Source of the DNA: an uncultured Acidimicrobiales bacterium
GTDB taxonomy: Bacteria > Actinomycetota > Acidimicrobiia > Acidimicrobiales > RAAP-2
Direction: 5' to 3'
Assembly (NCBI GenBank): GCA_963699105.1
Contig: CAVOTI010000001.1
Location: forward strand, 186,221 to 250,220
DNA length: 64,000 bases
Made by a program: the position numbers and the translations under genes. Below the pieces are notes generated by a model, which did not search any database, was not told where the DNA came from, and was given only the letters and a program-made list of their open reading frames with translations. How positions within the stretch are numbered: the stretch's first letter is position 1; each line of letters opens with the position of its first letter. This document shows, piece after piece, positions 29,203 to 43,534 of the stretch.

Positions 29203-29443
29203 GCGCCCGGCCTTTCACCCCATGAGGCGGCCCGCCCACAGCCGAGCCGGCTCCGGTTCGAGCGATGCGGGCTCGGGGCGAGGCTCGATCTGCGGCCGAC
29301 CACCCGGAGTCTCCATCGAATCCTTCTCCCCGGACGGCTGCTCAACCGATTTGTGGGGCATCGGCGCCCTACAGGTTGTTGGATCGAGCATGTTAGATTC
29401 CCTTCTCCGAGAAATAGTAATGGGCGAGAAAGGCTGGTTACCC

Positions 29444-30337: not shown

Positions 30338-30390
30338 GTGTCGGAGGGGGGACTTGAACCCCCACGCCCTTGCGGGCACTAGCCCCTCAA
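30338..30390. repeat. att site: displaced 3' half of tRNA-Leu, an exact copy of 43450-43502
   Basis: The 53 nt GTGTCGGAGGGGGGACTTGAACCCCCACGCCCTTGCGGGCACTAGCCCCTCAA are identical at both sites. The flanks diverge immediately. Confidence 0.95.
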
Positions 30391-30503
30391 CTGTGAATGG
30401 CCAATTTCCCTACCAGGCCAAATGCGGACAATGTCCGCTTATGCAGGGAGAACGGCCTACCGCTCGCGACGGTTGCTGCCACTTGCTGCCAGGTCGGGCG
30501 CGC

Positions 30504-31058
30504 ATGATCGCGCACGGATACGCGCACGCAGTCGGGGCGTCATACTGGAAGTTGTACGGTCGGACCGTGAGCCCGATGTCGAAGTACCTGACGCCGGCCT
30601 ATCCCCAGGACGGGTCGCCGGAAGATCGGATGGCGCAGTTCGAGGACCTAGTGATCGGTGATCTCCGAGCGCAACTCCGGCTCGGCCACCAAGCGGCCTC
30701 GGTCGCCATCCGCGACCTCGACAGCTTCGACGAGTGGGACCTCGCTCTAGACGAGGACGTAATGGCTACGGTGAGATTCACGGTGGAGGGTGAACCCAGC
30801 GAGGCGGTCATCCCGTTGTCAGACATGGGCACCATCCTCGACGGCAACCAGGCCGAAGTTGGATTAGTCGATATCGCTGCTCCCTCTCCCTTACCCGCGG
30901 TCTGGTTCGCACTCGCAGTCAGTGGCGACTATGTCATCGTGGCAAGAGACACGCATGGGTTTGGACTTCTGGCACGGTCCACGGCACCTGGGCCTGATGG
31001 CAAGGCTTTCGGTGAGTGGTTGCAGGCTTGGTCAGAGCGATCCGGTGTCCCAGGGTGA
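30504..31058 (+). CDS. Hypothetical protein (element, att-distal end)
   Basis: Part of ORF 30270..31058, taken from the first Met inside the element (MIAHGYAH...). An alternative start is MSKYLTPAYPQDG. I recognise no family. Confidence 0.4.
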   Translation: MIAHGYAHAVGASYWKLYGRTVSPMSKYLTPAYPQDGSPEDRMAQFEDLVIGDLRAQLRLGHQAASVAIRDLDSFDEWDLALDEDVMATVRFTVEGEPSEAVIPLSDMGTILDGNQAEVGLVDIAAPSPLPAVWFALAVSGDYVIVARDTHGFGLLARSTAPGPDGKAFGEWLQAWSERSGVPG

Positions 31059-31719
31059 ACCGGAGACGGGAAAGGCAATCGGCCGCTTGGTTTCAGAATA
31101 TGGTGACGGGCCTCCAAATCGAAAGGCATCCCACTTAGTTAACAGCATCCGATTCGGGACCATCATGGACTGGCTCTCGGCAAGTGACCCGCCGGTCTGG
31201 GTGGTCGTGACCACCGGAGGCAAGACGAAGGCTCAGTCTCGAGAAGCAAAAGAACCTAAGGGTTCGCTGGCGGAGAAAATCGTGGATGGGCTCAGCATCG
31301 AAGCCTACGGTGCAAAGCGAGAGGGCCTGCCCACTGCCAAGGACTGGTCGAAGCGCTACACGGCGGATGAGCGGGAACCGGGTGCTGCCGACTCCAACCT
31401 TGTCTACGAGAGCGAGGACGCGGCCAGTCTGCTCGAGCGCTCATCCGGGAGAGCCCAGGTCGCCGGCGAGTGGACCCTCCAACAGCTTGCACCTGACCCG
31501 ACAGGCGAGCTGATCGCTGGTGTGATGAACCTCAGCACCTCCGTACCGGTCTCCGTGGCCCACGGTATCAACCCTCAATCACAGATTGCTCTCTGGCTTG
31601 AGGCCAAGCTGAGCCCCCGAGAACTGGCGGTGCAATATCTCGACCAGCTCGGGTATTCGGATGCCCAAATCGGTCACGCGTGTCGAAGATTGCCCGTTCG
31701 ACGGTGGCCACGTGCTTGA
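31044..31719 (+). CDS. Hypothetical protein
   Basis: ORF 30922..31719. The GTG at ~31044 is the first plausible start not deeply overlapping the previous gene. No motif recognised. Confidence 0.4.
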
Positions 31720-31809
31720 GCAGAGCCCGACGGAAAATCGAAACTTATCGAAATCCACTGTAGGCAAAATGCCCGATCGGTTCCCTTTGGTAGTTAGGAG
31801 GCACCCCCC

Positions 31810-31995
31810 ATGAGTGACATTCGAGTAGCAATCCTGGTTGGTGACCAGGTGGTCGCCACCAGCGATGACCTAGCCGCCGTGAGAGTTAGTGCAGGGATGA
31901 TGGCCCGAGCCAATACGGAGTCCGATCCGGTGCTCTGGCCAATTGCGGAAGGACGTCGAGAGGCGTGCCGGCGGATAGCCATGGCTGAAGTCTGA
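31810..31995 (+). CDS. Small hypothetical protein
   Basis: 61 aa. A strong AGGAGG Shine-Dalgarno sequence lies 9 nt upstream of the ATG. Confidence 0.45.
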   Translation: MSDIRVAILVGDQVVATSDDLAAVRVSAGMMARANTESDPVLWPIAEGRREACRRIAMAEV

Positions 31996-32091
31996 CCTAG
32001 CCCCCATCCGGCTGGCTTGGCCCAGCCGCCATCCCCGATTCGCATTCGCAGACCGCCTTCGGGCGGTCTTTTTCGCGCCCTGGAGGTGAAG

Positions 32092-32451
32092 ATGCCCGCA
32101 GAACTCTTGACCGACCAGGACCTCGCTGATCGTTGGCAGGTGACTCTTCGCAAGATTCGAGAAATGCGGGCCAGGCGCGAGCTGGAGTTCGTATCGATCG
32201 GCAAGTCGCCCAGGTATCGCCTGGAAGTAGTCGAAGCGTACGAAGCGGCAAACACGGTGACCGCAAAACGAGGCCCCCTGGCCCACGCTGATGAATCCCC
32301 AAAGGAGACGAAGGAAATGATCCCCCACGCGAAGGCGACCGGGCGGACACCCGGTCGGACCTTCAAGCAGCTACAACTACCGCACCTAAGTCTACCGCCC
32401 ATGAGGCATTCGAGTGGCTCCAATTCCTTGAGGATGAGTTTGTTGAGCTGA
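32092..32451 (+). CDS. Excisionase / AlpA-like helix-turn-helix DNA-binding protein
   Basis: MPAELLTDQDLADRWQVTLRKIREMRARRELEFVSIGKSPRYRLEVVEAYE matches the HTH_17 / Xis pattern. The C-terminal tail is low complexity. Confidence 0.55.
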   Translation: MPAELLTDQDLADRWQVTLRKIREMRARRELEFVSIGKSPRYRLEVVEAYEAANTVTAKRGPLAHADESPKETKEMIPHAKATGRTPGRTFKQLQLPHLSLPPMRHSSGSNSLRMSLLS

Positions 32452-32518
32452 GGACACGGATGGCCTGCGCAGCCTGTTCTACTCCCCCACCACCAACACC
32501 GCGGTGGCCAGGTGATCC

Positions 32519-33871
32519 ATGGGCACGGGACAGCCGACCGACCCACACTTGCGGACGGTGGTCCTAGTGACCACTGGAGCCGACCTCCTCGATGAACTGC
32601 ACGATGCACTTGTGAGGTACGTGGTCCTCCCCAGCCTGGAAGCCACCACCGCCGTCGTCCTCTGGATCACCGCTACACATGGTCTGTCTGCCTTCGAACA
32701 TGCCACCCGGTTGGCGATCAACAGCCCGGTGAAGAGATGCGGTAAGTCTCGGCTTCTGGAGGTGATCCAGGCGACAGCGTTCAACACCGTCCCCACAACC
32801 AACATCTCGGTCCCCGCCTTGTTCCGGATGATCGATGCCGCGGCCCAGCCACCGACACTGATCCTGGACGAGGCTGACCGACTCTTCGGGTCGGCGAAGA
32901 AGGATGAGGAGAACAGGGATCTCATCGCCATCCTGAACAACGGATTCCGGGAGGGAAGTCCCACCTGGCGCTGTGTCGGCCCCTCGCAGGTTCCGACCCC
33001 GTTCAGCAACTACGCCATGGTGGCGTTGGCCGGTATCGGGAGGAAGCCGGACACCATCGAGGACCGGGCCGTGAATATCGAGATGCGCCGGCGGATGCCA
33101 GGAGAGGTCATCACCAAGTTCCGACTCCGTACGGACCTGCCTGCTCTCCATGATCTTCGTGATCGCCTTGGGGAATGGGTCTCCTCGGTGTCGGAGGTGC
33201 TCGAGGTCCCGGTGACCGACCTCCCCGCAGGGCTGGAGGACCGAGCTGAGGATGCATGGGAACCGCTGCTAGCCGTCGCCTCTGCCGCGGGTGGTCATTG
33301 GCCTCAGCGAGCGCACACGGCGGCGGTAAAGCTGACTCAGGACGTCGATGACGACGACCAATCAGATGTTCGGATTCTCGCCGACGTGAGGACCACGTTC
33401 AAGGCTGAGGGGGACCTCCCCTTCCTGCCATCAGTTGAGCTGCTCACCGGTCTCCGCCAGATTGAGGACGCTCCCTGGAGTGACTTCGATCTCACCACCC
33501 GAAAGTTGGCGACGAAGCTCACCAAGTTCGGAGTGAAGCCGAGGCCCAACCCGGCCGGGACGGTCCGCGGGTACTACCGAAAGGACCTCCAAGATGCATT
33601 CCGTCGGTACCTTCCGTCGGACCCGTCAGAAGCGTCAGAAATGCCGACCACGCTGGAGAAACGGCCTGACGGATTGAAATCGTCTGACACTTCGAACCGT
33701 CAGACGCAAATGAACCGTCAGACAGAACAGGCAGCTCAGACCCCAAATCTGACAGGTCTGACGCTTCCGACGGATACCCCGCCCGAATGTCGGGTCTGTG
33801 GACACCCTCCGATCCGATCCGGGTCATTCGGACTCATCGCCTGCGAGCACCAACTAGCGGAGATCGGTTGA
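32519..33871 (+). CDS. DUF3631-family protein (replication/primase-associated type of actinobacterial integrative elements)
   Basis: Intact 450 aa. LLDELHDALVRYVVLPSLEATTAVVLWITATHGLSAFEHATRLAINSPVKRCGKSRLLEV...LILDEADRLF. It has a C-terminal CRVCGH...C cluster. Confidence 0.6.
   Translation: MGTGQPTDPHLRTVVLVTTGADLLDELHDALVRYVVLPSLEATTAVVLWITATHGLSAFEHATRLAINSPVKRCGKSRLLEVIQATAFNTVPTTNISVPALFRMIDAAAQPPTLILDEADRLFGSAKKDEENRDLIAILNNGFREGSPTWRCVGPSQVPTPFSNYAMVALAGIGRKPDTIEDRAVNIEMRRRMPGEVITKFRLRTDLPALHDLRDRLGEWVSSVSEVLEVPVTDLPAGLEDRAEDAWEPLLAVASAAGGHWPQRAHTAAVKLTQDVDDDDQSDVRILADVRTTFKAEGDLPFLPSVELLTGLRQIEDAPWSDFDLTTRKLATKLTKFGVKPRPNPAGTVRGYYRKDLQDAFRRYLPSDPSEASEMPTTLEKRPDGLKSSDTSNRQTQMNRQTEQAAQTPNLTGLTLPTDTPPECRVCGHPPIRSGSFGLIACEHQLAEIG
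33625..33763. repeat. Iteron-like cluster of GTCAGA(C)/(G)TCTGAC motifs
   Basis: Forward copies are at 33625, 33634, 33699 and 33717, with a degenerate copy at 33735. Reverse copies are at 33682, 33748 and 33756. GAACCGTCAGAC occurs twice, 18 bp apart. Confidence 0.7.
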
Positions 33872-33929
33872 ATCTCCGACCCCGCAACCAGAAGCCAACC
33901 ACCGTCACACTCAAAAGGAGAACACAATC

Positions 33930-34241
33930 ATGATTCACACCCTGCCTGAGCGCGATTACATCTGGGACGAACTGCGGCCCCATGGCCGAGTCGTGTTCTA
34001 CGAGGGCGACGATCCTTCCGGCTTCGCCGCCGAGATGCTGGCCCTCGACATCGATGTCACCGCGCCGATTCCGTGGGACCCATGGGCTTTCCCAGACGAG
34101 ACGGACTCTCTGCACGTGCCTTTCAGCGGAGCATGGGGTGGCTATCTCCGTGACCCCTTCGGACGCCACTTTGCCTTTTACATCCCCGTGGGCCGGGTTG
34201 AGGAGATATACGCCCCAGACCGCTGGCCTCTGGGGTCGTGA
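33930..34241 (+). CDS. Hypothetical protein
   Basis: 103 aa. AAGGAG Shine-Dalgarno sequence upstream. The stop overlaps the next start (GTGA). Confidence 0.5.
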   Translation: MIHTLPERDYIWDELRPHGRVVFYEGDDPSGFAAEMLALDIDVTAPIPWDPWAFPDETDSLHVPFSGAWGGYLRDPFGRHFAFYIPVGRVEEIYAPDRWPLGS

Positions 34242-34558
34242 GCGTCCTGGAGGAAACGCTGGCCTGGCAGTTACGGGCGGTCGAGACGCCGACGCCGGAA
34301 CGCGAGTACCGCTTCTGTCCACCGAGACGTTGGCGGTTCGATCTTGCCTGGCCTGACCGACTGCTGGCAGTCGAAGTGAACGGCGGTGCATGGGTCAATG
34401 GTCGGCACAACCGAGCCTCTGGCCAACGATCCGACAATGAGAAGACCAATGCTGCCACTCTCGCCGGTTGGCGCGTACTGAGGTTCACGGGGGCAGAAGT
34501 CGAGGACGGAACCGCGCTGACCCAGATCCAACAAGCGTTGGAGATGACCGATGCCTAG
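34238..34558 (+). CDS. DUF559 / Vsr-fold (PD-(D/E)XK-like) endonuclease-domain protein
   Basis: REYRFCPPRRWRFDLAWPDRLLAVEVNGGAW...DNEKTNAATLAGWRVLRFTGAEV fits the DUF559 pattern (D...E.(D/N)G...GW.VLRF). Confidence 0.5.
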   Translation: MSVLEETLAWQLRAVETPTPEREYRFCPPRRWRFDLAWPDRLLAVEVNGGAWVNGRHNRASGQRSDNEKTNAATLAGWRVLRFTGAEVEDGTALTQIQQALEMTDA

Positions 34559-34675
34559 GCGCCACGGCGCCGGAGCGCGACGGGTACAGGCCAAGCGGTC
34601 CCGCCGCAGGGCGCCGAAGGTAGCGAGACGCAGCGCCTTCTCCCAGCGCCGCCGGCCGAAGGCAGGGGGAGACCA

Positions 34676-34981
34676 GTGATCCTGAAGACTTGGTGTCTGG
34701 ACTGCGGTGCCCTGTTCCGGGGGTCGGGTAGCCGGTGCCCCAAGTGCCAGCCTGCTGTCGAAGCCAAGCGAGGGACCAGTACCCAACGTGGCTACGACTC
34801 GCAGTGGAGTCGGACTAGCAAGCGGATCATCCAGCGAGACGGTGGCGTCTGCTTCTACTGCGGAGGTCGTGCCACCACTACAGACCACCGGATACCCAAG
34901 GCACGAGGTGGAACAAGTGAAGACTGGAATTTGGTGGCTGCCTGTAGGCCATGTAACTCAGGCAAGAGAGACCGAATATAG
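34676..34981 (+). CDS. HNH endonuclease
   Basis: RDGGVCFYCGGRATTTDHRIPKARGGTSEDWNLVAACRPCNSGK has the CxxC...H...N...CxxCN HNH core, plus an N-terminal CxxC...CxxC zinc ribbon. Confidence 0.85.
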   Translation: MILKTWCLDCGALFRGSGSRCPKCQPAVEAKRGTSTQRGYDSQWSRTSKRIIQRDGGVCFYCGGRATTTDHRIPKARGGTSEDWNLVAACRPCNSGKRDRI

Positions 34982-35168
34982 CTGTGAACTGGGGGGATAC
35001 TCTGCCTTCCCTGTCATATGAAGTAAAGACCCGCAACGCCTGATTTGCGCACATTCGGGAAACTCGCGAAACCAAGGGGCGATTCGGCGCCACTCGGTGA
35101 ATATCGCTTCTACCAGGACGTTTTCGCTCATTGTGCGCGCTGCGCCCCCTCCAGAGAGGACATAGACG

Positions 35169-35656
35169 ATGGGCAGGCCCCCAAAGCCCCTAGAAGTGCA
35201 CCGCCGCAACGGGAACCCCTCACGTAAGAAGCTCCCGGCCCGGTCGGAGACCGTCACACTGGCGCCGGCCACGGATGCAGTCCCGATCTCCCTCGGTCCA
35301 CGTGGCCGAGAGGTTACCGACGGTCTCTGGATATGGCCGTATGGATATCGGAGCTGGATCTCACCGTCCTGGAGGACTTCGCCCGCACCTGGGACGAAGT
35401 CTGCGAGATGCGCGATGTGATCGCCGCTGATGGCCTCACCTACCTCGAACCCTTGGTGACCCCGGCCGGCAATGTCGTCGGGGAGAAGCCAGTCGCTCAC
35501 CCATTACTCAAGGAGTTACGCAGTGCTCAAAAGCAGCTCGACACCCACCGGAAGGTCCTCGGATTCGACCCCACATCGCGAGCCACGCTTGGCACCGCCG
35601 AGGTCAAGCGTCAAAGTCGGCTCGAAGAGCTCAGGGCGAAGCGGCAAGTCCCCTAG
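35169..35656 (+). CDS. Phage terminase small subunit (P27 family), one frameshift (~35335)
   Basis: MGRPPKPLEVHRRNGNPSRKKLP... (ORF 35169..35420) continues as WISELDLTVLEDFARTWDEVCEMRDVIAADGL...HPLLKELRSAQKQL (ORF 35333..35656). Confidence 0.7.
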
Positions 35657-37298
35657 TTGGCCCCCGCTCCACCTCACGAAGGTCCCAGCCGCCGATATCA
35701 AGCGAGGAGACGGCCCCCAGATCTGTGAGGCGGTGGAGTCCCTGGCCACCGTGAGCAAGGACGGGTACGCCGCCAGTGCGGGGGACTCTCTGGTCCTGAG
35801 GTCGTGGCAGAAGGAGCTATTGAACCACCTGTTCGCCCGCCGCCCCAATGGCCGGCTCCGTCACCGGGTCGCACTCATTGGACTGCCCCGTAAGAACGGC
35901 AAGTCCTCTCTGGGGTCCGCTCTCGCCCTCGACGGACTGATCTTCGGGCCGGGCGGAGCCGAGGTCTACTCGGCAGCAGCGGAGAAGGAGCAGGCCCGGA
36001 TCGTCTTTGGTGAGACCAAGCGCATGATTGCCGCCGACCCCGAACTGTCCGCACTGTGCCATCCGATGCGGGACGTGATCGAGGTCCCCTCCACCAACAG
36101 CATCCTCCGCTGCCTGTCCGCCGAGGCGTACTCCAAGGAGGGCCTCAACATCTCCCGGGCCATCGTGGACGAACTCCACGCCCACCCGACGAGGGAACTC
36201 TGGGATGTCCTCACCCTGGCCTCAGCCGCCCGGATCGACCCGCTGATCGTCGCTATCACCACCGCTGGGGTGAAGACCCAGTCTGACGGTCAGGACACGG
36301 TCTGTTACGAGCTCTATCGCCACGGCCTCGAGGTGGCGGCCGGGACCGTTGATGACCCCAGCTTCTTCTTCGCCTGGTGGGGAGCGCCCGACGATGCCGA
36401 CCACCGGGACCCCGCGGTGTGGAAGCAGGCCAATCCCGGCTATGGGGATCTGATCGACCCCGAGGATTTCGAGTCCTCGGTCAGGAGGACCCCCGAGAAC
36501 GAGTTCAGGACCAAGAGGTTGAACCAGTGGGTGTCCTCCTCGAAGGCGTGGCTGCCGGCGGGAGCCTGGGATGCCTGCGTTGACGAGTCGAGGTCCATTC
36601 CTGACGGCACCGACGTGGTCCTTGGCTTCGACGGGAGCTACAACAACGACAGCACTGCCCTCGTGGTCGTCACCCTTCCCAAGGAGGGAGAACTGCCCCA
36701 TGTGGACGTTGTGGAGGCGTGGGAGAAGCCGTCCGACGAGATCGACTGGACCGTTGACATCCTCGAGGTGGAGGAAGTCATCCGGGACGCTTGCCGGCGC
36801 TGGCAAGTCCAGGAGATCGCCTGCGACCCCGCCCGGTGGGCAAGGACCTACCAAATTCTCGATGACGAGGGGCTCCCCGTCGTGACGTTCCCTCAGAGCA
36901 GCGAGCGTATGGTCCCCGCAACCCAGCGTCTCTATGAGGCGGTGGTCAACCAGCAGGTGACTCACTCAGGAGACACCCGGTTAGCCCGGCACATGGCCAA
37001 CGCCGCCACGAAGACGGATTCCCGCGGTACTCGACTGACAAAGGACGCCAAGAGGTCCAACCGCAAGATCGACCTAGCCGTGGCCCTGGTAATGGCCTAC
37101 GACCACGCTGCGAAGGTTAAGCCGAGGGGCCAGGGGATCTGGAGCGTCCGCGAGATGGTGGAGGAGCTCCGGGCCAAGCAGCAGGCAAACGGTGAGCCGG
37201 TCGGCGATGTCGTGGACCCTATGAACCCCTCCGTACGACCAGTAATCCCACCCGGAGGCGGTCAGGGTTTCATCTCCTTCAAGGATTTTTACCGATGA
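35657..37298 (+). CDS. Phage terminase large subunit (Terminase_1 type); start unresolved
   Basis: LVLRSWQKELLNHLFA...VALIGLPRKNGKSSLGSALAL (Walker A), RAIVDELHAH (Walker B), and a nuclease half with VLGFDGSYNNDSTALVVV...IACDP. The in-frame GTG is at 35733. The TTG at 35657 needs one upstream frameshift. Confidence 0.85.
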
Positions 37299-37454
37299 CA
37301 TGCCCACAATGAACCAACCCGAAAGGAATTGAACAAATGACATTTCGTCAACTTTTCCAACCTCAACAAGGTCGCACCACCGACCACCCGCTGCCGCGGC
37401 CCTCTGCGGGTCTGCTCGGACCGGGCGTCGGCCAGGATCGCAGCCCTCGGGTCG

Positions 37455-37780
37455 GTGCGGAGTCACTGTGAGTGCGGACAATCGTGGCCAGGTCACACGA
37501 TCCCCGACCACCGCTGCATCGACCACCTCGGCCGAGACTTGACCGAGATGAAGTTGGCCAGGGCCGAAGGGCGAGGCGAGCGCTCGCAGCGGTCAAGAGT
37601 CTCTGCCAACCGTTGCCTTGTGCGTTCTGCCAGGCCGAGATGAGGGCTGGTGAGACTCATATTTGTGCCGGGCCCAAGGGTCAGTTCCCCCATGAGCTCC
37701 AGGCCGCCCAGTGGCAGATGAAGGGCACCAAAGAGGCCCTCAAGGCCGAGCTGGCCGAGGTCCAAAAGGGGACGCTGTGA
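37455..37780 (+). CDS. Small Cys/His-rich hypothetical protein, apparently frameshifted
   Basis: CECGQSWPGHTIPDHRCIDH (ORF 37455..37643) continues as CAFCQAEMRAGETHIC...coiled-coil tail (ORF 37472..37780). Confidence 0.3.
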
Positions 37781-38206
37781 GGACCACGTCACTGCAGGAT
37801 CTCGCAGAGGACGTCGCGCTCCTCCGCCACCGGCCCGGTGCTCCAGAACCGCGACTTGGCCGAATGGCGCCGTTCCGCCCGCAGGAAGGCGGCGGCAAAA
37901 GCGACCGCCCCGGACGCCCGCACGCATCGCCTCCAGGAAGCCGTGGCTCGCCTCGAAGGGCCAGGCATGCATCGGCGCTCGAGCGGCTCGATGCCAAACT
38001 GGAGCTCAAGGCTGCGTTGATCGCCGCCCGCCGCGAGTTAGCCGGCAAATGGGTGAGCGCCCCGCAGCGGACTGGCCCTGCGGTCTGAGTACAGAGGCCA
38101 GAGCGAACGACGTGTTCAATTCCCAATCGGTAGGGATGCGGAGCGACGGGGCGCCCGCAGCGGGCTCGAGGTCCGGTCATCGGGAGCGGGTCTCAAGTCA
38201 AATGAG

Positions 38207-38682
38207 GTGCAGGTGACGGGCGCAGCCGTCCGCTACGGGGTGTTTTATGAGGTGCGGACGACCTGGGTACTTTCTCCGAGCGAATGCTGCCCGGCGTCGC
38301 CAGCGAGGTCCTGGCCAAGCCAGACCTCGACTGTAGCTTTCTTTGTAATCACTCAGGGATCGCACTGGCTCGCACCACGACCGGGAGCCTCAAGCTATGG
38401 GACACGTCTGATGCCCTCTGCTTCAGCGCCACCCTCGACACCAGGTCGAGGACCGCGAACGACGTCGCCATCGCCATCGAGCGCGGGGACCTGAGCCAAT
38501 GTTCAATCGGCTTCGTGGTGGCGGACGATAGTTGGAGTGACGACTGGTCGACCCGTTCGGTGTCCAAGCTCCACTCTCTGCAGGACGTCAGCTGCGTGTC
38601 CTATCCAGCGTCTCCCACGACCTCGGTCTGCTCCGTGGTCAGCGGGGTAGCTACGGATGATCGCCAGACGCCGGCTTCCTGA
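38207..38682 (+). CDS. HK97-family prohead protease (Peptidase S78/U35), one frameshift (~38270), short
   Basis: GAAVRYGV...FSERMLPGVASEVL...LDCSFLCNHSGIALARTTTGSLKLWDTSDAL...AIAIERGDLSQCSIGF...LQDVSCVSYPASPTTS matches the family pattern PGAF...L.NH...LAR...GTL.L...I.RGD...S.GF...L.EVS.V..PA. Confidence 0.65.
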
Positions 38683-39188
38683 AGTGGACCATTCGGAGTA
38701 GGCCGCATCTCCAACGGTTCGATCGGCGCTCAACATCGTCGCACGTTGCCAGGCTCGAAGCCACCTCGTAGGCTATCGGCGACCAGCTTGCCGCCGCCGC
38801 CGCAGAACTAACTGCTACATCGACGCCGACCCCTGCCCTGTGGCAGCCATGGCCGAGGCGCACGCCGACCTCATCGCCATCATTTCGGTCATCGCTTCCG
38901 CATTTTCCCGATGGGATCGCATGGGCAGAATCGAGCGATGCGAGGCCGTGGAGTGTGTCAGGGCCCTCGGAGAACGGGCTGACCACGTCGCGGAGGTCCT
39001 GGGCCCGCTTCCGTGACCTTGGCTCCTGAAATCCTGCAACGTTTCTGGTCCGAACCGGCCTGATTCCATCAAATTTGATGATTGCGGCTGCTGAGCCGAA
39101 ACTTGAAGCTTCAGGGAGAGTTGTGCGCGGGCAGGGGACCTAACCCAAGAAGGACAAGACCCACAAACCAAAAAAAGGCGGAGCAACA

Positions 39189-39482
39189 ATGCGAAAGACG
39201 CGCAGGGCGGTACTCGCGTTCCTCATCTTTTCGGCATTTGTCCTAGTCGGCCTTACCGTCCGGCCATCTCCAGCTTCGGCCGGTGGATCTCCAGCCTCAG
39301 TTCGTAGTAGTCAGGCGGACCTTCCTGATTTCCAGGTAGAGCCAGGTGAGAAGGTGCACGAGACAACATTTTCAAGCGGTTCGGGAACTGCGACTACCAG
39401 CATGGGGATCGATTGTTTGGCACGTCAATGCACGGTGATCGCATTCGCAGATGTAAAGTCAGTACTGCCGCTTTCCGGGTAA
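39189..39482 (+). CDS. Small secreted hypothetical protein (low-GC cargo)
   Basis: Signal peptide MRKTRRAVLAFLIFSAFVLVGLTVRPSPASA. A-rich region with a purine-rich GGCGGAG upstream of the ATG. Confidence 0.5.
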   Translation: MRKTRRAVLAFLIFSAFVLVGLTVRPSPASAGGSPASVRSSQADLPDFQVEPGEKVHETTFSSGSGTATTSMGIDCLARQCTVIAFADVKSVLPLSG

Positions 39483-39510
39483 TTACCAAGCATCGGTCAC
39501 GCTAAGCGTT

Positions 39511-40272
39511 GTGCCTGGAGGTTCGGCCACCATAACGAAGAAAAAAAGGGTTAGTCCCCACCCAGCCGCTGTCGGGCCTGTTGACGATCCGTTTGGGCAG
39601 ATTAGCGTTGTTGCCGCGGGCGAGATTACAAATGATGGCGAGGTCAATCCGTACCTCCCCCTTATTGTCGATCTCACCGTTGAGGTCGAGGGCGCACCTG
39701 GAGACCTTTTCTCTACGGGAAGCCCCTTTCCGCCGAATCCCGTGTGTCCCGGTACTGGAAGTGCGAGTCAGTTCCCTGTCGTAATCGATCATGAAAGGCA
39801 CAACACAACTTATGCCTTATCGCTGACCGGCAATGCTGGGGGCGTTGCACTGAATCAACCGATTGGATCGATTACTACCGACGACAAGGGTTTCGCCATC
39901 CAGACGTTCACTTTGCCCCAAGTGCCAAGCCACAACGCCTGGACGCTGGTCGCGACTCCGTCTAAGGGCAAAGCCGTTTCGACAACGTTCGCTACTGGCT
40001 ACTCCAACTGCGAGGTTGGCCAATTCGTGGATGATAACGGCGATCTTGAGGTTAATTGGGCAATTACGGGTGCTCTTCCAGGTGCCCCAGCCCAATTTAA
40101 CATCGATGGTTCTCTACAAGAACAGGACCCCGTCCAAAATGACGGGTCAGCGTCAGACAGCTTTGTGTGGAATTGCCCATCTGGCACGGACCACAGCTTT
40201 ACGATTAATTACGCCACTATCGATAACCCCAATGTTTCCGCGTACTTTCCTGTTGAATGCCCCTCCTACTGA
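39511..40272 (+). CDS. Hypothetical protein (low-GC cargo), beta-rich and Cys-containing
   Basis: 253-aa ORF with a GTG start and no signal peptide in this frame. No family recognised. Confidence 0.45.
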   Translation: MPGGSATITKKKRVSPHPAAVGPVDDPFGQISVVAAGEITNDGEVNPYLPLIVDLTVEVEGAPGDLFSTGSPFPPNPVCPGTGSASQFPVVIDHERHNTTYALSLTGNAGGVALNQPIGSITTDDKGFAIQTFTLPQVPSHNAWTLVATPSKGKAVSTTFATGYSNCEVGQFVDDNGDLEVNWAITGALPGAPAQFNIDGSLQEQDPVQNDGSASDSFVWNCPSGTDHSFTINYATIDNPNVSAYFPVECPSY

Positions 40273-40424
40273 AATAGAACCTCGGGAAACCACGTCGTGG
40301 CGGTCCCTTCTCAGCACAGAGGCAGCCACGAGCAGCTGACCCATCTGGAGACCGCCACGGACAAGACTGTCCCCGAACGCCGGCTAGGTGGAAACAAACC
40401 CTTTGACCGACGACCGTCGTCCGG

Positions 40425-40631
40425 TCAGAGGACCCACTGAACCGACGTCAGGTCCGCACGGTGCCCGTCGCACGCTTCGACGGTGTGCCACTTGCCGGCG
40501 GCATCCTGGAACCGTCCACGCCATACGGTCAGGTAGGGGCAGTGCTGGGCGTGCCCCGTACCGTCCTCAGCCTGAATCATCCGGAAGCAGCGCCGGGAGA
40601 GCAGGCAAAAGGCGTTGGCATAGTGCTGCAT
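40425..40631 (-). CDS. Small Cys/His-rich hypothetical protein
   Basis: 68 aa. Its ATG lies 3 nt after the stop of the upstream gene (TAAGCGATG). A hairpin lies just downstream (40398-40420). Confidence 0.45.
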   Translation of the reverse strand: MQHYANAFCLLSRRCFRMIQAEDGTGHAQHCPYLTVWRGRFQDAAGKWHTVEACDGHRADLTSVQWVL

Positions 40632-40634
40632 CGC

Positions 40635-41078
40635 TTACGGGGATCCTGGGGCATCCCGCGTACCCCCGAAATAGGAACCCTGAAACGGGTGATGTTCGAC
40701 GAACCCTCGTATCTCAGTGAGTAAAAGGCCAATCATCGGATAGATGGCGTCGCCCCACATCTTCTGGTCGGTCCACTTAGTTCGGTCAACGATTCGCGTC
40801 CGGATATGTGCCTCGGCCGAAGTGCTGTCTGGGTCGAAAATCTCCATCAGCCACTCGTCGAGAAGCCCCGCCTGGCCAGCCCATCTAACGGCCTGTAGAA
40901 CCTCTTGTTCCATGGTGGGAGTTTTTGGTCGGTCCATCGGCGCCAGCTTGTTTGCGGTACGCAGCCTGCGTTCCATGGCCCGCTCTGCCACCTCCGATCC
41001 CACGATGTCGGGGACGCCCATGGCCCTTCGAATCAATAGGGACCAGGCGGTGCCATCTTCTTCCTGTTGCTCGCTCAT
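40635..41078 (-). CDS. Hypothetical protein
   Basis: 147 aa, acidic N-terminus MSEQQEEDGTAW. It is the first gene of a two-gene minus-strand unit that diverges from the RHH-int unit. Confidence 0.45.
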   Translation of the reverse strand: MSEQQEEDGTAWSLLIRRAMGVPDIVGSEVAERAMERRLRTANKLAPMDRPKTPTMEQEVLQAVRWAGQAGLLDEWLMEIFDPDSTSAEAHIRTRIVDRTKWTDQKMWGDAIYPMIGLLLTEIRGFVEHHPFQGSYFGGTRDAPGSP

Positions 41079-41149
41079 TTCATCCGCCCCATTCCCGCTC
41101 GCATTCGTGACGACTGACGGAAGCGTAGCCAGATGGGTTCCCGGAGGGT

Positions 41150-41190
41150 GCTTGTATTATACGTACACCTATACTTATACTGACCTCTAG
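41150..41190. promoter_or_regulatory. AT-rich divergent promoter/operator candidate with three (T/C)TATAC repeats
   Basis: CTTGTATTATACGTACACCTATACTTATACTGACC. TATAC occurs at 41158, 41170 and 41176. This is the lowest-GC spot of the window and lies between genes starting at 41078 (-) and 41221 (+). Confidence 0.4.
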
Positions 41191-41220
41191 CGGCACCTGG
41201 CCGCACGAATGGAGGCTCCG

Positions 41221-41925
41221 ATGGCACCAACCAAAACGCTGTACGTGAAGGAAAAGGACATGCCGCTGTGGGAGCGGTTCGAGAAGGCGGTGAACGACTG
41301 GAACGCTGCAGACAGCGTTAGCGCTCTGATCGCCGAAGCCATGCGTGGATATCTAGATCAGTACGGGGACCAGGGCGGTGGTCTATACGTCTCTGCGCCA
41401 GATGAGGAGCTTCAGACATTCGGCGATGGCATGACGGCAATCCTTGACCGTCATGGCCCTGGGTGGAAGTTGTGCCTTGACCCCGACGTCTTCGGTGACG
41501 ATGCGTACAGTCCCTACGAACTGTCGTCCCGGGATCTGCCAGGTGCCATTACCGAGGCGCGCCAGCATATGGTCCGTGAGCGCGCTCAAGGCGAGATAGC
41601 CGCCGCCGCCCGCCGTCTGCGCGAAGCCCGTGGGGAAGAGGAGATTGCTCAGGAGCGCGAAGGCAGGGATGCCGGGAGGCGTTGGGCGCTGAACGACGCG
41701 ATGCCAAGCGAGTTGCAGGCTGTTTTGGAGTTATCGAATTCTTGGTGGATCTCCATTGAGCCCGACGGACGCGAGTGGCCGACGCTGTACACGGCACTTT
41801 CTGAGAGCATCGACAGTGCCCCCGACGAGCCCTGGGTCATCAGCCGGGATCCCTTCATGGTGGCTTTTTTCGATGCGGCAGCGGAGGTCTACTCCGAAGT
41901 GCTCTCGACCGAAAAGGAGAACTGA
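41221..41925 (+). CDS. Hypothetical protein with possible N-terminal ribbon-helix-helix fold, coupled to the integrase
   Basis: GGAGG lies 5 nt upstream of the ATG at 41221 (the ORF track start of 41209 is less likely). KTLYVKEKDMPLWERFEKAV...SVSALIAEAMRGYL has a beta-alpha-alpha pattern. The stop overlaps the int ATG (TGATG). Confidence 0.45.
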   Translation: MAPTKTLYVKEKDMPLWERFEKAVNDWNAADSVSALIAEAMRGYLDQYGDQGGGLYVSAPDEELQTFGDGMTAILDRHGPGWKLCLDPDVFGDDAYSPYELSSRDLPGAITEARQHMVRERAQGEIAAAARRLREARGEEEIAQEREGRDAGRRWALNDAMPSELQAVLELSNSWWISIEPDGREWPTLYTALSESIDSAPDEPWVISRDPFMVAFFDAAAEVYSEVLSTEKEN

Positions 41926-43052
41926 TGGGCAAGAGAACATTCGGATCGACCCGCAAACTGCCCTCTGGCCGCTACCAGGCGTCCTACTGGCACGAAGGGA
42001 TCCGCTACACCGGACCCAAGACCTTCGACAGTAAGGCCGACGCTAACGCCTTCCTCTCGGAGACTGAGACGAACCTGCGGAAGCAGCTTTGGATCGATCC
42101 TGATGCCGGTGAGATCACCTTCCGCCAGTTCGCCGATGAATGGCTGGAGGCCCGCCTGGACCTACGAGCGACGACCCGCAGCCTCTACCGCATCCTGCTC
42201 GACAAGTGGCTACTCCCCCACCTCGGCGACAAGTCGATCGGCAGCATGACGCCGGAAGTCTGGAAGCGCTGGTTCGTCAAGGTGAGTACCGCCAATCCCG
42301 GCAGCCTGCAACCAGGCAAGGCGTACAAGCTCGCTCACACGATTCTCAATGCCGCCGTTGCCGATCACCGGATCGTCGTGAATACCTGCGTGGTCAAGGG
42401 TGCCGCCAACGAGGAGAGCCCAGAACGGCCTACTGCCACGATCGAGCAGATATTCGCCCTCGCCGATGCCATAGAACCCGAGTACCGCGCCCTGGTGTTG
42501 ATCGGCGCATTTGCATCCCTTCGATTCGGCGAGGCTGCCGGGCTGCGGAGGCGCAGCGTCGACCTTATGCACCGGACGCTCACGGTGACGGACCAGGCCA
42601 TCGAACTGGCTGACGGAAGCACTATGTTCGGACCCCCGAAGACCCCCGCCGGCGTCCGCAAGGTTGCGATCCCCGATTCAGTGTTCGCCACCATTGAGGA
42701 CCACTTGGACGCTCATGTTGGTGTCGATCCTGATGCCCTACTTTTCACCGCCTCCAACGGCACTCCCCTGCGCCGTACGAAGTTCCGCTCACGTTGGCTC
42801 AGGGCGTGCAAGAAGGCAGGCGTGACGGGACTGCACTTCCACGATTTGCGGGGGTCGGGGGCGACGCTGGCGGCTCAACAAGGCGCCACCATCGCAGAGC
42901 TGATGAACCGTCTTGGCCACAAGTCGGCGACCGCTGCAATGAGATACCAGCACGCCACTGCCGAGCGCGATCGGGCCCTCGCCGATGCCATGGGGAAGGC
43001 GATCGAAAATGCCAAGCCTCAACCGGTCGCGAAGATCGCGGCCATCGGATGA
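41925..43052 (+). CDS. int: Tyrosine recombinase / phage integrase
   Basis: Intact 375 aa. N-terminal SAM-like domain. Catalytic region has LRFGEAAGLRR (Arg), HFHDLRGSGATL (HxxR) and GHKSATAAMRYQH (Tyr). Confidence 0.9.
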   Translation: MGKRTFGSTRKLPSGRYQASYWHEGIRYTGPKTFDSKADANAFLSETETNLRKQLWIDPDAGEITFRQFADEWLEARLDLRATTRSLYRILLDKWLLPHLGDKSIGSMTPEVWKRWFVKVSTANPGSLQPGKAYKLAHTILNAAVADHRIVVNTCVVKGAANEESPERPTATIEQIFALADAIEPEYRALVLIGAFASLRFGEAAGLRRRSVDLMHRTLTVTDQAIELADGSTMFGPPKTPAGVRKVAIPDSVFATIEDHLDAHVGVDPDALLFTASNGTPLRRTKFRSRWLRACKKAGVTGLHFHDLRGSGATLAAQQGATIAELMNRLGHKSATAAMRYQHATAERDRALADAMGKAIENAKPQPVAKIAAIG

Positions 43053-43388
43053 CTACTCCTGCGGCAAGTAGTGGCCACAAACCGCAAGATCGTGCTGATG
43101 GTCGCACTGGGCGCACCTGTAGGCGACGTGTAGAGCCTCGGAGCACCTGTGATTGCATGGCAAGCAAAGCTGCGCCGAGAGATTGCGGTGATCATCGTCG
43201 ATATGGGCCATCGGAAGACCTCTTTCTTCTGACTCGAAGCGAGGGAACCAGTGGCACCGATGACGGTGCTCGTTCATACCTCCGCCGACCCGTAAGTCGA
43301 CCGCCCGCACACGCAGACCGAACTTGCCCACGAAGGATACCGCGTCGCGATTGGGGCTGGAGGAGTTCATCGCGCACGAATCGCGCAC
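43053..43388 (-). CDS. Cys/His-rich small ORF between int and att (doubtful)
   Basis: HRHRCHW...CLPCNHRC...CAQCDHQHDLAVCGH. It is convergent with int and the two stops abut. Confidence 0.25.
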   Translation of the reverse strand: MRDSCAMNSSSPNRDAVSFVGKFGLRVRAVDLRVGGGMNEHRHRCHWFPRFESEERGLPMAHIDDDHRNLSAQLCLPCNHRCSEALHVAYRCAQCDHQHDLAVCGHYLPQE

Positions 43389-43449
43389 GCCGCCGACTGG
43401 TCACATCGTGCGACCGTTTTGGTCAGATCAAAGAACCAGGTCAGGAAGA

Positions 43450-43502
43450 GTGTCGGAGGGGGGACTTGAACCCCCACGCCCTTGCGGGCACTAGCCCCTC
43501 AA
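43450..43502. repeat. att site: tRNA-proximal copy of the 53-nt direct repeat
   Basis: Identical to 30338-30390. It forms the 3' half of the intact tRNA-Leu. Confidence 0.95.
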
Positions 43503-43534
43503 GCTAGCGCGTCTGCCTATTCCGCCACTCCGAC
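43451..43534 (-). tRNA. tRNA-Leu (anticodon GAG)
   Basis: Reverse complement: GTCGGAGTGGCGGAATAGGCAGACGCGCTAGCTTGAGGGGCTAGTGCCCGCAAGGGCGTGGGGGTTCAAGTCCCCCCTCCGACA. 7-bp acceptor stem. Anticodon stem CTAGC/GCTAG with loop TTGAGGG. Long variable arm. T-loop GGTTCAAGTCC. Discriminator A. No encoded CCA. Confidence 0.9.

Follow-up and report, generated by a model that had tools for sequence, protein, structure and literature searches.

Which kind of element holds a phage packaging module and no recognisable genes for a virion is the question raised by an island of 13.1 kb (positions 30338-43502), which is seated in the 3' end of a tRNA-Leu(GAG) gene of an actinobacterial genome and which we analysed within a window of 64 kb, i.e. 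the whole stretch of DNA under study.

Boundaries and gene content of the island

An exact direct repeat of 53 nt brackets the island (30338-30390 and 43450-43502; spacing 13,112 nt). A preliminary description, based on the sequence alone, had equated this repeat with the 3' half of tRNA-Leu(GAG) and had placed an intact tyrosine integrase next to the tRNA gene. Indeed, we could validate both points, the first by the exact repeat together with a single tRNA call and the second by the end of int, which lies 397 nt from the tRNA gene. The segment 30338-43502 is a discrete site-specific integrative element. Its GC content (0.60-0.64) is below that of the right flank (0.67-0.70), whereas the left flank, where cellular envelope genes are located, has a GC content of 0.60-0.63 from about 24 kb onward, so that the proposed drop relative to both flanks applies to the right side and not to the left, which is not higher. 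The features of the two ends and of the integration, excision and replication functions are as follows.

30338..30390, no strand: attL, the distal att copy, identical over 53 nt to the 3' half of tRNA-Leu(GAG); no tRNA called there
30582..31058, plus strand: hypothetical ORF of 158 aa, the portion of ORF 30270-31058 that lies inside the element (GC3 phase signal 30480-30930)
31165..31719, plus strand: hypothetical ORF of 184 aa, probably the genuine portion of ORF 30922-31719 (phase signal 31290-31560)
32017..32451, plus strand: weakly matching excisionase-like/AlpA-like HTH_17 protein (Pfam HTH_17, E 1.4e-4; phrog_66 and phrog_7735, excisionase)
32519..33871, plus strand: RepAM (DUF3631) replication initiator, intact (Pfam PF12307, E 3.7e-48; P-loop with CGKS, DEAD)
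33930..34241, plus strand: hypothetical 103-aa ORF with good codon statistics
41209..41925, plus strand: 238-aa protein with an RHH-like N-terminus (by eye, from the translation), candidate regulator; its stop overlaps the int start
41925..43052, plus strand: tyrosine integrase, 375 aa, intact (phrog_1, E 1.9e-61; Pfam Phage_integrase and Phage_int_SAM_3)
43450..43534, minus strand: tRNA-Leu(GAG) (ARAGORN), whose 3' 53 nt (43450-43502) are the proximal att copy, attR

The HTH_17 match is below the curated cut-off of Pfam, and an HTH_17 gene is found in the equivalent place ahead of RepAM in L015, L087, L117 and L201. The 238-aa protein gave a weak match to phrog_4296 only and none in Pfam, and the three hypothetical ORFs matched nothing in Pfam, PHROGs, PADLOC or NCBIfam. 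The DUF3631 protein is best taken as RepAM, which initiates replication in integrative elements of the pMEA300 type, pMEA300 being an AICE (PMC3218068); its Walker-like residues are invariant in our alignment (A1).

The packaging module and its relatives

Downstream of the replication gene lies a block of phage packaging genes.

34238..34558, plus strand: DUF559-like small nuclease (phrog_503, E 5.5e-32; weak Pfam DUF559 match)
34676..34981, plus strand: HNH endonuclease of the packaging module, intact (Pfam HNH, E 6.7e-9; phrog_144, E 1e-19)
34982..35168, no strand: HNH-TerS spacer of 187 bp, candidate cos/terminase recognition region, positioned as in HNH-terminase phages
35169..35656, plus strand: TerS of the P27/Terminase_4 type (frames joined: Pfam Terminase_4, E 3.3e-10; phrog_83, E 7.4e-16)
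35652..37298, plus strand: TerL with ATPase and nuclease domains, intact (phrog_9, E 4.6e-127; Pfam TerL_ATPase and TerL_nuclease)

The island carries a complete cos-type packaging set of HNH, TerS and TerL, and the gene order described earlier (HTH, DUF3631, DUF559-like, HNH, TerS, TerL, S78 protease, int) was recovered with Pfam and PHROGs. The spacer, in which no significant repeats were found, is a candidate cos region by its position between HNH and TerS. TerL is 65-69% identical to phage TerLs (69% to L001), and complete siphophage contigs show synteny with the block that runs from the DUF559-like gene to the protease; compared with one of these contigs, L005, identity is 50% for the DUF559-like protein, 33% for HNH, 48% for TerS, 65% for TerL and 44% for the protease.

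A portal gene follows within 1.5 kb after TerL in 65 of the 67 IMG/VR phage loci with a TerL of the window's family, and it follows TerL in every phage context that was looked up. Two independent tRNA-integrated elements, L119 and L201, depart from this rule. Both combine TerS-TerL with non-portal genes and a short S78 protease and have no portal and no capsid gene, the absence of a major capsid protein (MCP) being proven in L119 only next to the protease, since its right end lies beyond the contig. L119 is seated at tRNA-Pro(GGG) and reads Int, RepAM, DUF559-like, HNH, TerS, TerL, three non-portal ORFs and a 216-aa S78 protease, with identities to the window of 62% (RepAM), 49% (DUF559-like), 65% (HNH), 56% (TerS) and 67% (TerL). 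L201 is 15.0 kb long, has both ends defined by a 60-nt repeat at tRNA-Pro(GGG), and reads Int, HTH_17, a DnaB-type replication module, HNH, TerS, TerL, ORFs of 193 aa and 121 aa, a 211-aa S78 protease and cargo; neither portal nor MCP was found in it.

These two islands bear on the possibility that a plasmid-like AICE or IME of the RepAM type picked up a phage fragment (34.2-38.7 kb) from a co-resident prophage by illegitimate or homologous recombination, the packaging genes being passengers without a role in transfer. This would agree with RepAM being the initiator of pMEA300, with the lack of TerL, TerS or HNH within 10 kb in all 80 reference-genome RepAM loci, and with the closest RepAM relatives (L121, L126, L127), which have no packaging genes downstream. 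Moreover, the RepAM loci L093, L095 and L096 (IMG/VR proviruses, isolate genomes) have a common downstream gene set, members of which are in L093 and L095 DUF2637, MobC and a relaxase according to Pfam. However, scanning all element ORFs revealed no Tra/FtsK, relaxase or Spd-like gene, and membership among the AICEs was rejected; in L119 the RepAM gene is coupled to this packaging block with an unchanged order of genes, and in L201 the packaging and protease genes stand next to another replication module, which argues that the block is a functional module moving between backbones. We therefore consider the acquisition of a passenger fragment unlikely.

The interval after TerL and the missing virion genes

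The part of the island between TerL and the integrase region contains the following features.

37337..37780, plus strand: Xa, a 147-aa double zinc-ribbon-like protein (HMMER matches P0264-P0269)
37781..38100, plus strand: stretch before the protease, possibly a gene for a small helical protein (GC3 phase signal, no clean ORF)
about 38100..38682, plus strand: S78 prohead protease, domain complete (Pfam Peptidase_S78, E 2.1e-17; phrog_80, E 3.7e-19)
39189-39482, plus strand: cargo ORF of 97 aa with a signal-peptide-like N-terminus (translation)
39511-40272, plus strand: cargo ORF of 253 aa, after the 97-aa ORF
40425..41078, minus strand: two cargo ORFs of 68 aa and 147 aa (codon statistics)

What had been taken for about 0.9 kb of small Cys-rich ORFs consists for the most part of a single genuine gene, Xa. 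With two single-base indels mended, its ORF aligns with P0264 at 69% identity along the entire length; about 0.3-0.4 kb (37781-38100) remain outside Xa and show no similarity to the corresponding genes of L119 or L201 or to portals. In the protease, homology starts near 38140, the N-terminal homologous stretch being located at 38141-38254, and no ATG, GTG or TTG start precedes the GTG at 38207. With its frames joined, the protein is 44% identical to residues 39-176 of the L005 protease, and it has no C-terminal extension, which measures about 170 aa in the phage homologs. Accessory cargo makes up the low-GC block at 38.7-41.2 kb (GC 0.555-0.58 in 39189..40272), and its ORFs had no family match in Pfam, PHROGs, PADLOC or NCBIfam.

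As had been noted before, capsid, portal, tail and lysis genes are not recognisable in the element: searches with Pfam, PHROGs, NCBIfam and PADLOC found no portal, MCP, tail or lysis gene, a three-frame profile scan of 37200-39260 found none either, and tblastn returned nothing when queried with portals, MCPs and tail proteins from the most closely related phages. Membership among the prophages was rejected as well. cfPICIs are defined by portal, MCP and connectors, and since these are absent, the island is not a cfPICI, as its preliminary naming "cfPICI-like" would have it; it is better described as PICI-like, with a terminase of its own. That the island might still be a compact complete prophage or a cfPICI, whose portal and capsid are too divergent for recognition, has a precedent of sorts in the related element L087, where the ORF that follows a scaffolding-like gene (phrog_4708) has 318 aa, may encode the MCP and matches nothing in PHROGs, nor in Pfam at E-values up to 0.01, so that undetected capsid genes are possible in this group. 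We regard this as very improbable for the window, however, where the three-frame scans gave no match and no unassigned ORF exceeds 265 aa. The candidates have 238 aa (RHH-like), 253 aa (after the signal-peptide-like ORF; AF2 model with a pLDDT of 42, too poor for use) and 184 aa (likely real part), and nothing fits a portal of about 400 aa.

Four single-base indels break three genes, namely TerS (one, near 35314-35316, where one added T restores a 162-aa ORF), Xa (two, at 37394-37395 and 37569-37571 according to tblastn frames) and the protease (one, near 38256-38258). All adjoin short base runs, and mending them gives full ORFs. The frameshifts reported for the surrounding assembly were found in uvrA and pgk (one each), and assembly errors are therefore the simplest reading of the indels within the island. 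Uninterrupted ORFs had been put forward as an argument against simple decay; this holds for RepAM, HNH, TerL and Int, but not for TerS, Xa and the protease, and given their type and the broken uvrA and pgk, the lesions neither prove nor exclude decay. About four indels in 2 kb compare with two in about 11.8 kb of flanking housekeeping genes, and since they are not randomly spread over the element genes, a part of them may be genuine. In Xa, the middle segment keeps 90% identity to P0264 even out of frame, and the shifts of this gene are therefore errors or very recent.

Satellite or remnant

The preliminary description had named a phage satellite and a prophage remnant and had chosen neither; the comparative evidence, i.e. 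the recurrence of the layout in L119 and L201 and the portal in 65 of 67 loci, favours the satellite. We favour the reading that the island is a PICI-like satellite that packages itself by its own terminase into helper-made capsids, for which we see about an even chance. The helper would be a related siphophage (HK97-type, with an HNH-terminase, about 30-40 kb) that infects the cell or is induced, such phages carrying the closest homologs of TerL, TerS, HNH and the protease; a helper phage was not found within the 64-kb window. The island would be excised by Int and the HTH protein and replicate through RepAM, and its HNH-TerS-TerL terminase would recognise island DNA, probably at a site within the 187-bp spacer, and dock on helper-made procapsids, whereby island DNA would be packaged. 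Speculatively, the protease and the small proteins encoded between it and TerL may change how the helper capsid assembles or matures.

The main rival, possible but in our view rather doubtful, is a defective remnant of a capsid-forming satellite or small prophage. Its ancestor would have held RepAM, HNH, TerS, TerL, portal, protease, MCP and connectors. About 0.8 kb (37299-38100) would have taken the place of the lost portal, and the low-GC cargo that of the lost MCP and connectors; the element would now be gathering frameshifts and might still excise, packaging being no longer possible. Complete versions of such an element exist (L088, L089, L092, L094; also L015), foreign low-GC DNA lies exactly at the expected place of the MCP, the indels are clustered, and close relatives are missing, as every element protein that was looked up is, at 90% identity, a singleton among 15 billion proteins. 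Against this stand the same loss pattern in L119 and L201, which are 33-67% diverged and have long ORFs that are intact or nearly so, the breakpoints, which leave TerL full-length and the S78 domain complete, the fit of the indels to assembly error, the high identity of the middle Xa segment to P0264 and the identity of the att repeats over 53 nt.

The TerL of the window groups with a phage TerL (L005/P0004) and not with the L119/L201 clade, and its protease is 44% identical to that of L005 compared with 33-35% to those of L119 and L201. This proximity to the phage, together with the protease lacking a canonical start and the C-terminal extension, agrees with a remnant and was counted against the satellite reading. 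Furthermore, what the island encodes between TerL and the protease has no homologs in the corresponding interval of L119 or L201, so that the shared layout could stem from independent recombination or deletion instead of one family. In favour of the satellite reading, 19 further proteins are homologous to the 245-aa protein encoded in this interval of L119 (45-67% identical; 16 with 234-258 aa, three shorter fragments), some on MAG contigs of 0.8-1.2 Mb, and none in 80 phage loci or in IMG/VR.

With 13.1 kb, the island has about one third of the size of the contigs and phages with related TerLs (40-42 kb). Small RepAM elements with head and packaging genes and no detected tail genes are common in Actinomycetota: L088, L089, L092 and L094 hold HNH, TerL, an SPP1-type portal, an HK97-type MCP and ORFs of about 105 aa within 10-12 kb, and L015 holds TerL, a portal and a ClpP-MCP fusion. 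L119 keeps the gene order of the window from RepAM through the protease, and L201 has a DnaB-type replication module. Because these two related islands elsewhere have the same layout, the island of the window probably represents a sparsely described type of phage parasite and not just the debris of a prophage.

Integration site and gene content of the element

The only tRNA gene that ARAGORN identified in the window is tRNA-Leu(GAG) at 43450-43534 on the minus strand. An exact 53-mer is present at 30338-30390 and at 43450-43502, and its second copy equals the 53 nucleotides of the tRNA 3' end, in agreement with the preliminary description, which had recognized a 53-nt repeat of the 3' half of tRNA-Leu. 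Across 28-46 kb, this is the longest direct repeat. Because the second copy is the 3' end of the tRNA gene, the pair looks like the att sites of a tRNA 3'-end integration, and the element spans 13.1 kb from att to att. Indeed, a tyrosine integrase gene, already reported to abut the tRNA, adjoins the att site in the tRNA. Between integrase and tRNA (43053-43388, minus strand) we observed a 111-aa Cys/His-rich ORF with a weak zinc-ribbon match (Cas12f1-like TNB, E 0.03), which may not be a real gene.

A drop in GC content relative to both flanks had been described as well. This could be validated for the right flank (0.67-0.72, compared with 0.555-0.66 in the element), but the left flank is equally GC-poor from about 24 kb onwards (0.60-0.63). 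A second island left of attL was ruled out as the cause, since the genes located there (24000-30337) are cellular, i.e. envelope and stress genes including a GT87 glycosyltransferase, a YfhO-like membrane protein, Clp_N, Usp and PhyH. This flank may represent a variable cell-envelope region.

Genes were assigned with Pfam and PHROGs, which for the main genes supported the gene order read from the sequence before.

Genes assigned within the element (window coordinates)
32017-32451: HTH_17/excisionase-like protein, weak match (Pfam E 1.4e-4, below cut-off)
32519-33871: DUF3631 (RepAM) (Pfam E 3.7e-48)
34238-34558: DUF559-like nuclease (phrog_503)
34676-34981: HNH
35169-35656: P27-type TerS (Terminase_4, phrog_83), one single-base indel
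35652-37298: TerL (phrog_9, E 4.6e-127)
about 38100-38682: S78 prohead protease
41925-43052: tyrosine integrase (phrog_1, E 1.9e-61; Pfam PF00589)

The protein encoded at 32017-32451 also matched PHROG excisionase families (E 8e-5 to 2e-3), and the one at 41209-41925 appears RHH-like by eye. DUF3631 corresponds to RepAM, which initiates the replication of pMEA300, an integrative element of actinomycetes (PMC3218068), and P-loop-type residues are invariant in our RepAM alignment (A1). The low-GC cargo at 39189-41190 includes an ORF of 97 aa, the N-terminus of which resembles a signal peptide, and behind it a Cys-containing ORF of 253 aa; the two could be one gene split by an indel. The AF2 model of the 253-aa ORF was unusable (pLDDT 42), and two minus-strand cargo ORFs of 68 and 147 aa had no homologs in any library searched. 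PADLOC and NCBIfam assigned neither a defence function nor any other named role to the ORFs of the cargo and the left end, and scans of the whole element and of the HNH-TerS spacer for promoters, terminators and repeats yielded nothing beyond chance.

Structural genes and interrupted reading frames

Profile searches with Pfam and PHROGs on all element ORFs gave no match to a portal, capsid, connector, tail, holin or endolysin, and thereby confirmed the absence of capsid, portal, tail and lysis genes that had been noticed from the sequence. The sole match to Phage_capsid and to a PHROG major-head family comes via the protease domain. PADLOC and NCBIfam gave no structural match for the unassigned ORFs, and tblastn of the window with all structural proteins of the closest phage contigs (L001, L005) was likewise negative. 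Three-frame Pfam and PHROGs scans of 37200-39260 found neither portal nor capsid. A portal remnant between TerL and the protease was rejected on the basis of these scans and of tblastn with the L001 and L005 portals, and a sensitive small-database tblastn of the TerL-protease region added no portal-region similarity. That capsid genes are present and escaped all of these searches seems very improbable to us.

Among 5.8 billion clustered proteins, the closest relatives of the window TerL reach at most 69% identity, and the four element proteins found among 15 billion sequences are all singletons at 90% identity. The TerL contexts examined were mostly ordinary siphophage modules: in the phage contigs L001 and L005 and in the contig of the homologous protein P0006, TerS and TerL are accompanied by a small ORF, the portal, an S78 protease (290-345 aa), MCP and tail genes, and on L202, a short contig, by two small ORFs and a portal, after which the contig stops. 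The window block 34238-38682 has a syntenic counterpart in L005 (DUF559-like nuclease 50%, HNH 33%, TerS 48%, TerL 65% and protease 44% identity), and the window TerL pairs with L005/P0004 in a neighbour-joining tree. Among cultured phages, Pontimonas phage phiPsal1 provides the best TerL match (50%), and phiC31-like phages of Streptomyces (about 41 kb) come next. Relatives of 30-42 kb within this TerL family carry portal, MCP, tail and lysis genes, whereas the element carries none of them. The portal lies at most 1.5 kb from TerL in 65 of the 67 IMG/VR loci of this family with enough sequence downstream (97%).

Several genes of the element are interrupted. TerS occupies two frames that meet near 35314-35316, and the protease N-terminus (38141-38254) lies in another frame than the core (38260-38682); when both frames are joined, the protease shows 44% identity to residues 39-176 of the L005 phage protease, and no ATG, GTG or TTG start is found upstream of the homologous N-terminus. 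For the ORF at 37472-37780, a HMMER search of the whole library returned homologs of 109-170 aa, which, mapped back, defined a single gene (37337-37780, referred to as Xa) with its middle third in another frame and 90% identical to the homolog P0264. Each of the lesion sites, four in all, lies beside a short base run, and a change of one base at these sites (+/-1) restores a 162-aa TerS, a 147-aa Xa and an open protease frame. The corrected Xa is 69% identical to P0264 over its full length, from which we conclude that a fairly close relative of the Xa part of the element exists; P0264 stems from an ENA contig of 12,005 nt. The Xa family (P0264-P0269) consists of uncharacterised proteins of 109-170 aa with two CxxC...HxC zinc-ribbon-like motifs, and it was found neither in IMG/VR nor in any of the 289 loci compared.

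Outside the element, uvrA (53929-57003, minus strand) is frameshifted at about codon 12 and pgk (45731-47900, minus strand) at about residue 300, the latter resulting in a false 667-aa PGK-TIM fusion ORF. Both frameshifts indicate indel errors in the assembly, which had indeed been described as frameshift-rich. Frameshifts were therefore dropped as proof of decay, and, since these housekeeping genes are also broken, the lesions of the element are not usable as evidence for it.

The lesion density is nevertheless 4 in about 2 kb within the element versus 2 in about 11.8 kb of flank. This clustering of indels, together with the phage-like affinity of TerL and protease and the foreign DNA at the MCP position, speaks for a defective remnant of a capsid-forming ancestor, the second reading offered at the outset. 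We regard such a remnant as rather unlikely, though as the most serious competitor. A purely accidental deletion becomes less likely because the portal follows TerL in nearly all loci of the family.

Related elements with and without a portal

A locus found via its 62%-identical RepAM, L119 (JGI 3300069644), adjoins tRNA-Pro(GGG) and encodes Int, three small ORFs, RepAM, a DUF559-like nuclease (49%), HNH (65%), TerS (56%) and TerL (67%), after which a 139-aa HTH_17 protein, two helical proteins (245 and 131 aa) and an S78 protease of 216 aa follow. Neither portal nor MCP is found at the canonical positions in L119, the right end of which lies beyond the contig. Its TerL gene (5933-7383) contains a single frameshift at '...FLDVVCA', with both halves retaining 58-67% identity to the TerL of the window; we take the frameshift for an error or, alternatively, for a mutation of very recent date.

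A second locus, L201 (ENA ERZ25039537), was found via its TerL, which is 80-87% identical to that of L119. A 60-nt repeat (90% identity) at tRNA-Pro(GGG) delimits this element, which spans 15.0 kb and encodes Int, HTH_17, a protein of 475 aa, a DnaB-type helicase, HNH, TerS and TerL. Behind TerL follow proteins of 193 and 121 aa (with 41-52% identity to the pair in L119), an S78 protease of 211 aa (64% identical to its L119 counterpart), an ORF of 103 aa and metabolic cargo. Neither portal nor MCP was found in L201.

From RepAM to the protease, L119 and the window share the same gene order at 35-67% identity, and the window element has the layout of the portal-less TerS-TerL-X-S78 group, defined in this analysis by L119 and L201 (X denoting the genes between TerL and protease): integration into a tRNA gene, Int, a replication module, HNH-TerS-TerL, non-portal genes, a short S78 protease and no MCP. 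The elements differ in that L119 and L201 carry the helical 245/193-aa and 131/121-aa proteins, whereas the window has the zinc-ribbon-like Xa of 147 aa and a further stretch instead. Furthermore, TerL and protease of the window belong to the L005 subclade and the L119/L201 TerL to a different one, and the replication module of L201 is of the DnaB type, that of the window RepAM. Homology of the window X region to the helical proteins of L119/L201 or to a Cys-rich protein of locus L006 was rejected, as the searches, including a sensitive small-database tblastn, gave only noise.

For the 245-aa protein of L119, we found 19 further homologs (45-67% identical), 16 of 234-258 aa and three shorter fragments, some of which lie on MAG contigs of 0.8-1.2 Mb; none occurs in 80 phage loci or in IMG/VR. 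The AF2 model of this family is confident (pLDDT 86) and all-helical, and a fold search with it against PDB and BFVD gave no significant structural match. Scans of IMG/VR with the short protease, the 245-aa X protein and the Xa family revealed no more portal-less elements, and none of the portal-less elements described here was present in it. One 245-aa homolog (P0259) and one TerL of the L201 cluster (P0270) each come from a JGI contig of 6,797 nt, which is probably another TerL-X element. With regard to integration sites, tRNA-Pro(GGG) lies beside L119 (684-759), the locus L126 (27-103) and L201 (2391-2468), the window element being located at tRNA-Leu(GAG), and the integrases of these three loci are only 24-26% identical to that of the window over the aligned parts.

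Next to these elements, RepAM occurs in other contexts. Of 80 RepAM loci drawn from reference genomes, not one carries a related TerL, TerS or HNH at a distance of up to 10 kb, and a first scan of genome contigs (GTDB representatives) with one RepAM protein as query gave no match. In IMG/VR provirus loci from isolate genomes (L093, L095), Pfam identified DUF2637, MobC and a MobA/VirD2-like relaxase after RepAM; a conserved gene set downstream of RepAM was seen in five IMG/VR provirus loci (L093, L095, L096, L098, L099). RepAM thus also serves elements of the relaxase/MobC type, which are probably mobilisable. With pMEA300-type AICE and RepAM mobilisable elements, the window element shares the tyrosine integrase, the RepAM backbone and a putative HTH_17 excisionase, and it could accordingly be viewed as an integrative element of the RepAM type that carries a phage fragment as passenger. 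However, no Tra (FtsK/SpoIIIE, PF01580), MobC, relaxase or other transfer domain was found in any element ORF, and a phage packaging module takes their place. Of the features that define an AICE of the pMEA300 type, integrase and RepAM are present and the FtsK/SpoIIIE-type Tra is not, so the element is not an AICE; we consider the passenger reading improbable.

Also numerous in IMG/VR are RepAM elements of 8-14 kb that encode head and packaging functions and in which no tail genes were detected. Four of these (L088, L089, L092, L094; 10-12 kb) carry Int, HTH_3, an Xis-like gene, RepAM, HNH, TerL, an SPP1-type portal and an HK97-type MCP as well as two small ORFs (about 105 aa each); these satellite-like islands of actinobacteria are of the capsid-forming kind and have RepAM as their replication module. 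Three of them (L088, L089 and L094) seem to be provirus segments taken from isolate genomes. In L102, L105, L111 and L115, the order is MCP, portal, protease, HNH, TerL. From these elements we conclude that RepAM-based satellite-like elements are common in Actinomycetota, among which that of the window is unusual in lacking portal and MCP. A RepAM element of 13.5 kb was further observed at tRNA-Val in L087 (7411-20916; also L128 and L136). Flanked by 35-nt repeats, it has no portal and encodes two integrases, a scaffolding-like protein (phrog_4708), an ORF of 318 aa without family assignment, HNH with a perfect 2 x 26-nt tandem repeat directly behind it (14950-15001), TerS (Terminase_7) and TerL.

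The best-supported model, to which we give an even chance, is a satellite that would package itself with its own HNH-TerS-TerL into the procapsids of a related helper. The island would be excised by Int and the Xis-like protein and replicated by RepAM, its own HNH-TerS-TerL would then package it into the helper's procapsids, and the helper capsid may be a target of the protease and the small partner proteins. Beyond the identification of the genes, every step of this model is inferred by us. No helper phage is encoded within the 64-kb window. An accidental deletion also becomes less likely in view of three tRNA-integrated islands with two replication backbones, which share the terminase, the short protease and the absence of portal and capsid. 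On these comparisons of gene content, we tentatively suggest, with somewhat less confidence than for the satellite model itself, that the window element, L119 and L201 might represent an undescribed class of actinobacterial satellites, intermediate between PICI and cfPICI. Such a class would bring the packaging motor (HNH, TerS, TerL), a prohead protease and small lineage-specific partner proteins; as it has neither portal nor capsid, its terminase would have to dock on the portal of the helper, and its protease would possibly process or re-size the helper capsid. The block of packaging and protease genes appears to travel as a module between RepAM and DnaB-type backbones and to be renewed repeatedly from helper-like phages. 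The L202 TerL is 82% identical to that of L119, yet located in a normal phage with a portal, from which we conclude that satellite-like elements and complete phages draw on one terminase gene pool.

Comparison with known satellites and integrative elements

The phage satellites of Proteobacteria and Firmicutes have been characterised in detail, and those of Actinomycetota are mostly computational calls (phiRv1/phiRv2, candidate mycobacterial PICIs), with one cultured Streptomyces system. If the satellite model is true, the island would bridge the strategies of PICI ('steal everything') and cfPICI ('steal only tails'). It raises the question whether a satellite-encoded large terminase can work on the portal of a helper, and which effect a satellite protease has on the helper's capsid. 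The RepAM module, known from conjugative actinomycete elements, is common to relaxase/MobC-type (probably mobilisable), satellite-like and prophage-like elements, and islands such as this one are missed by virus predictors.

phiRv1 and phiRv2 are about 10 kb in size, with genes for replication, a protease and a capsid; they are likened to the element by description. Like phiRv1/phiRv2 and the candidate Mycobacterium PICIs, the element is an actinobacterial prophage-like element without most phage genes. The candidate PICIs are defined by integrase and MCP, however, whereas the element has TerL and HNH instead of an MCP. phiRv1/phiRv2 and these candidates are treated as probable satellites by the respective authors (PMC10085698, PMC10654092). 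With the Streptomyces satellites MulchRoom and MiniFlayer, it shares the actinobacterial host, TerS, TerL and HNH; unlike the element, both encode portal, MCP, scaffold and adaptor, both have no primase and MiniFlayer has no integrase (PMC10690885). A complete siphophage has about 30-40 kb compared with 13.1 kb here, and, as portal, MCP, tail and lysis genes are absent, the element is not a prophage.

cfPICI make their own capsid and carry MCP, portal, head-tail adaptor and connector, according to the account of Alqurainy et al. 2023 as relayed in PMC10085698 and PMC10690885. On the same account, cfPICI (median 14 kb) resemble the element as small integrative islands with integrase, regulator (putative in the element), replication module, HNH, TerS, TerL and prohead serine protease and with no tail or lysis genes, but none of their four capsid-related components was detectable in the element, the replication gene of which, RepAM, also differs. 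The earlier label 'cfPICI-like' therefore had to be abandoned: HNH-TerS-TerL-protease is present, and MCP, portal and head-tail adaptor/connector were found with neither Pfam, PHROGs nor tblastn. SatelliteFinder accepts at least 9 of 11 cfPICI core components (PMC10085698), of which the element has only about 7. Since portal-less islands are missed by IMG/VR and would fail the cfPICI model, their abundance is probably underestimated.

With classical PICI/SaPI, the element shares the integrase, its own replication initiator and perhaps an AlpA/Xis-like regulator. In PICI/SaPI, TerS redirects packaging to the island, and capsids and tails of the helper are needed; the element is likened to them by its genes. 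Unlike PICI/SaPI, it resides in Actinomycetota and has no recognisable Cpm/Ccm-like gene for capsid-size redirection. Following the SatelliteFinder definition of PICI (PMC10085698), we found an integrase at one end, a TerS homolog and no tail, holin, portal or connector genes; RepAM takes the role of the primase-replicase as replication initiator (Pfam E 3.7e-48), and candidates for the AlpA/Stl/MerR regulator are the weak HTH_17 match (E 1.4e-4, below the Pfam cut-off) and the protein at 41209-41925, RHH-like by eye. The size is within the PICI range (median 9.5 kb, with 17 PICI at 20-28 kb). The PICI core includes TerS and not TerL, which is listed as cfPICI-specific, and HNH and serine protease are occasional in PICI, whereas the element carries the whole HNH-TerS-TerL motor and an S78 protease.

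Our literature search returned cfPICI, PICI, phiRv1/phiRv2, candidate mycobacterial PICIs and the MulchRoom/MiniFlayer satellites, and no described satellites with TerL but without portal and capsid. The novelty would thus lie in a TerL-bearing satellite candidate without portal and capsid, as judged only by in-silico comparison. From the comparison we conclude that the element shows most of the features by which PICI are defined, including size, and exceeds them by TerL, HNH and the protease.
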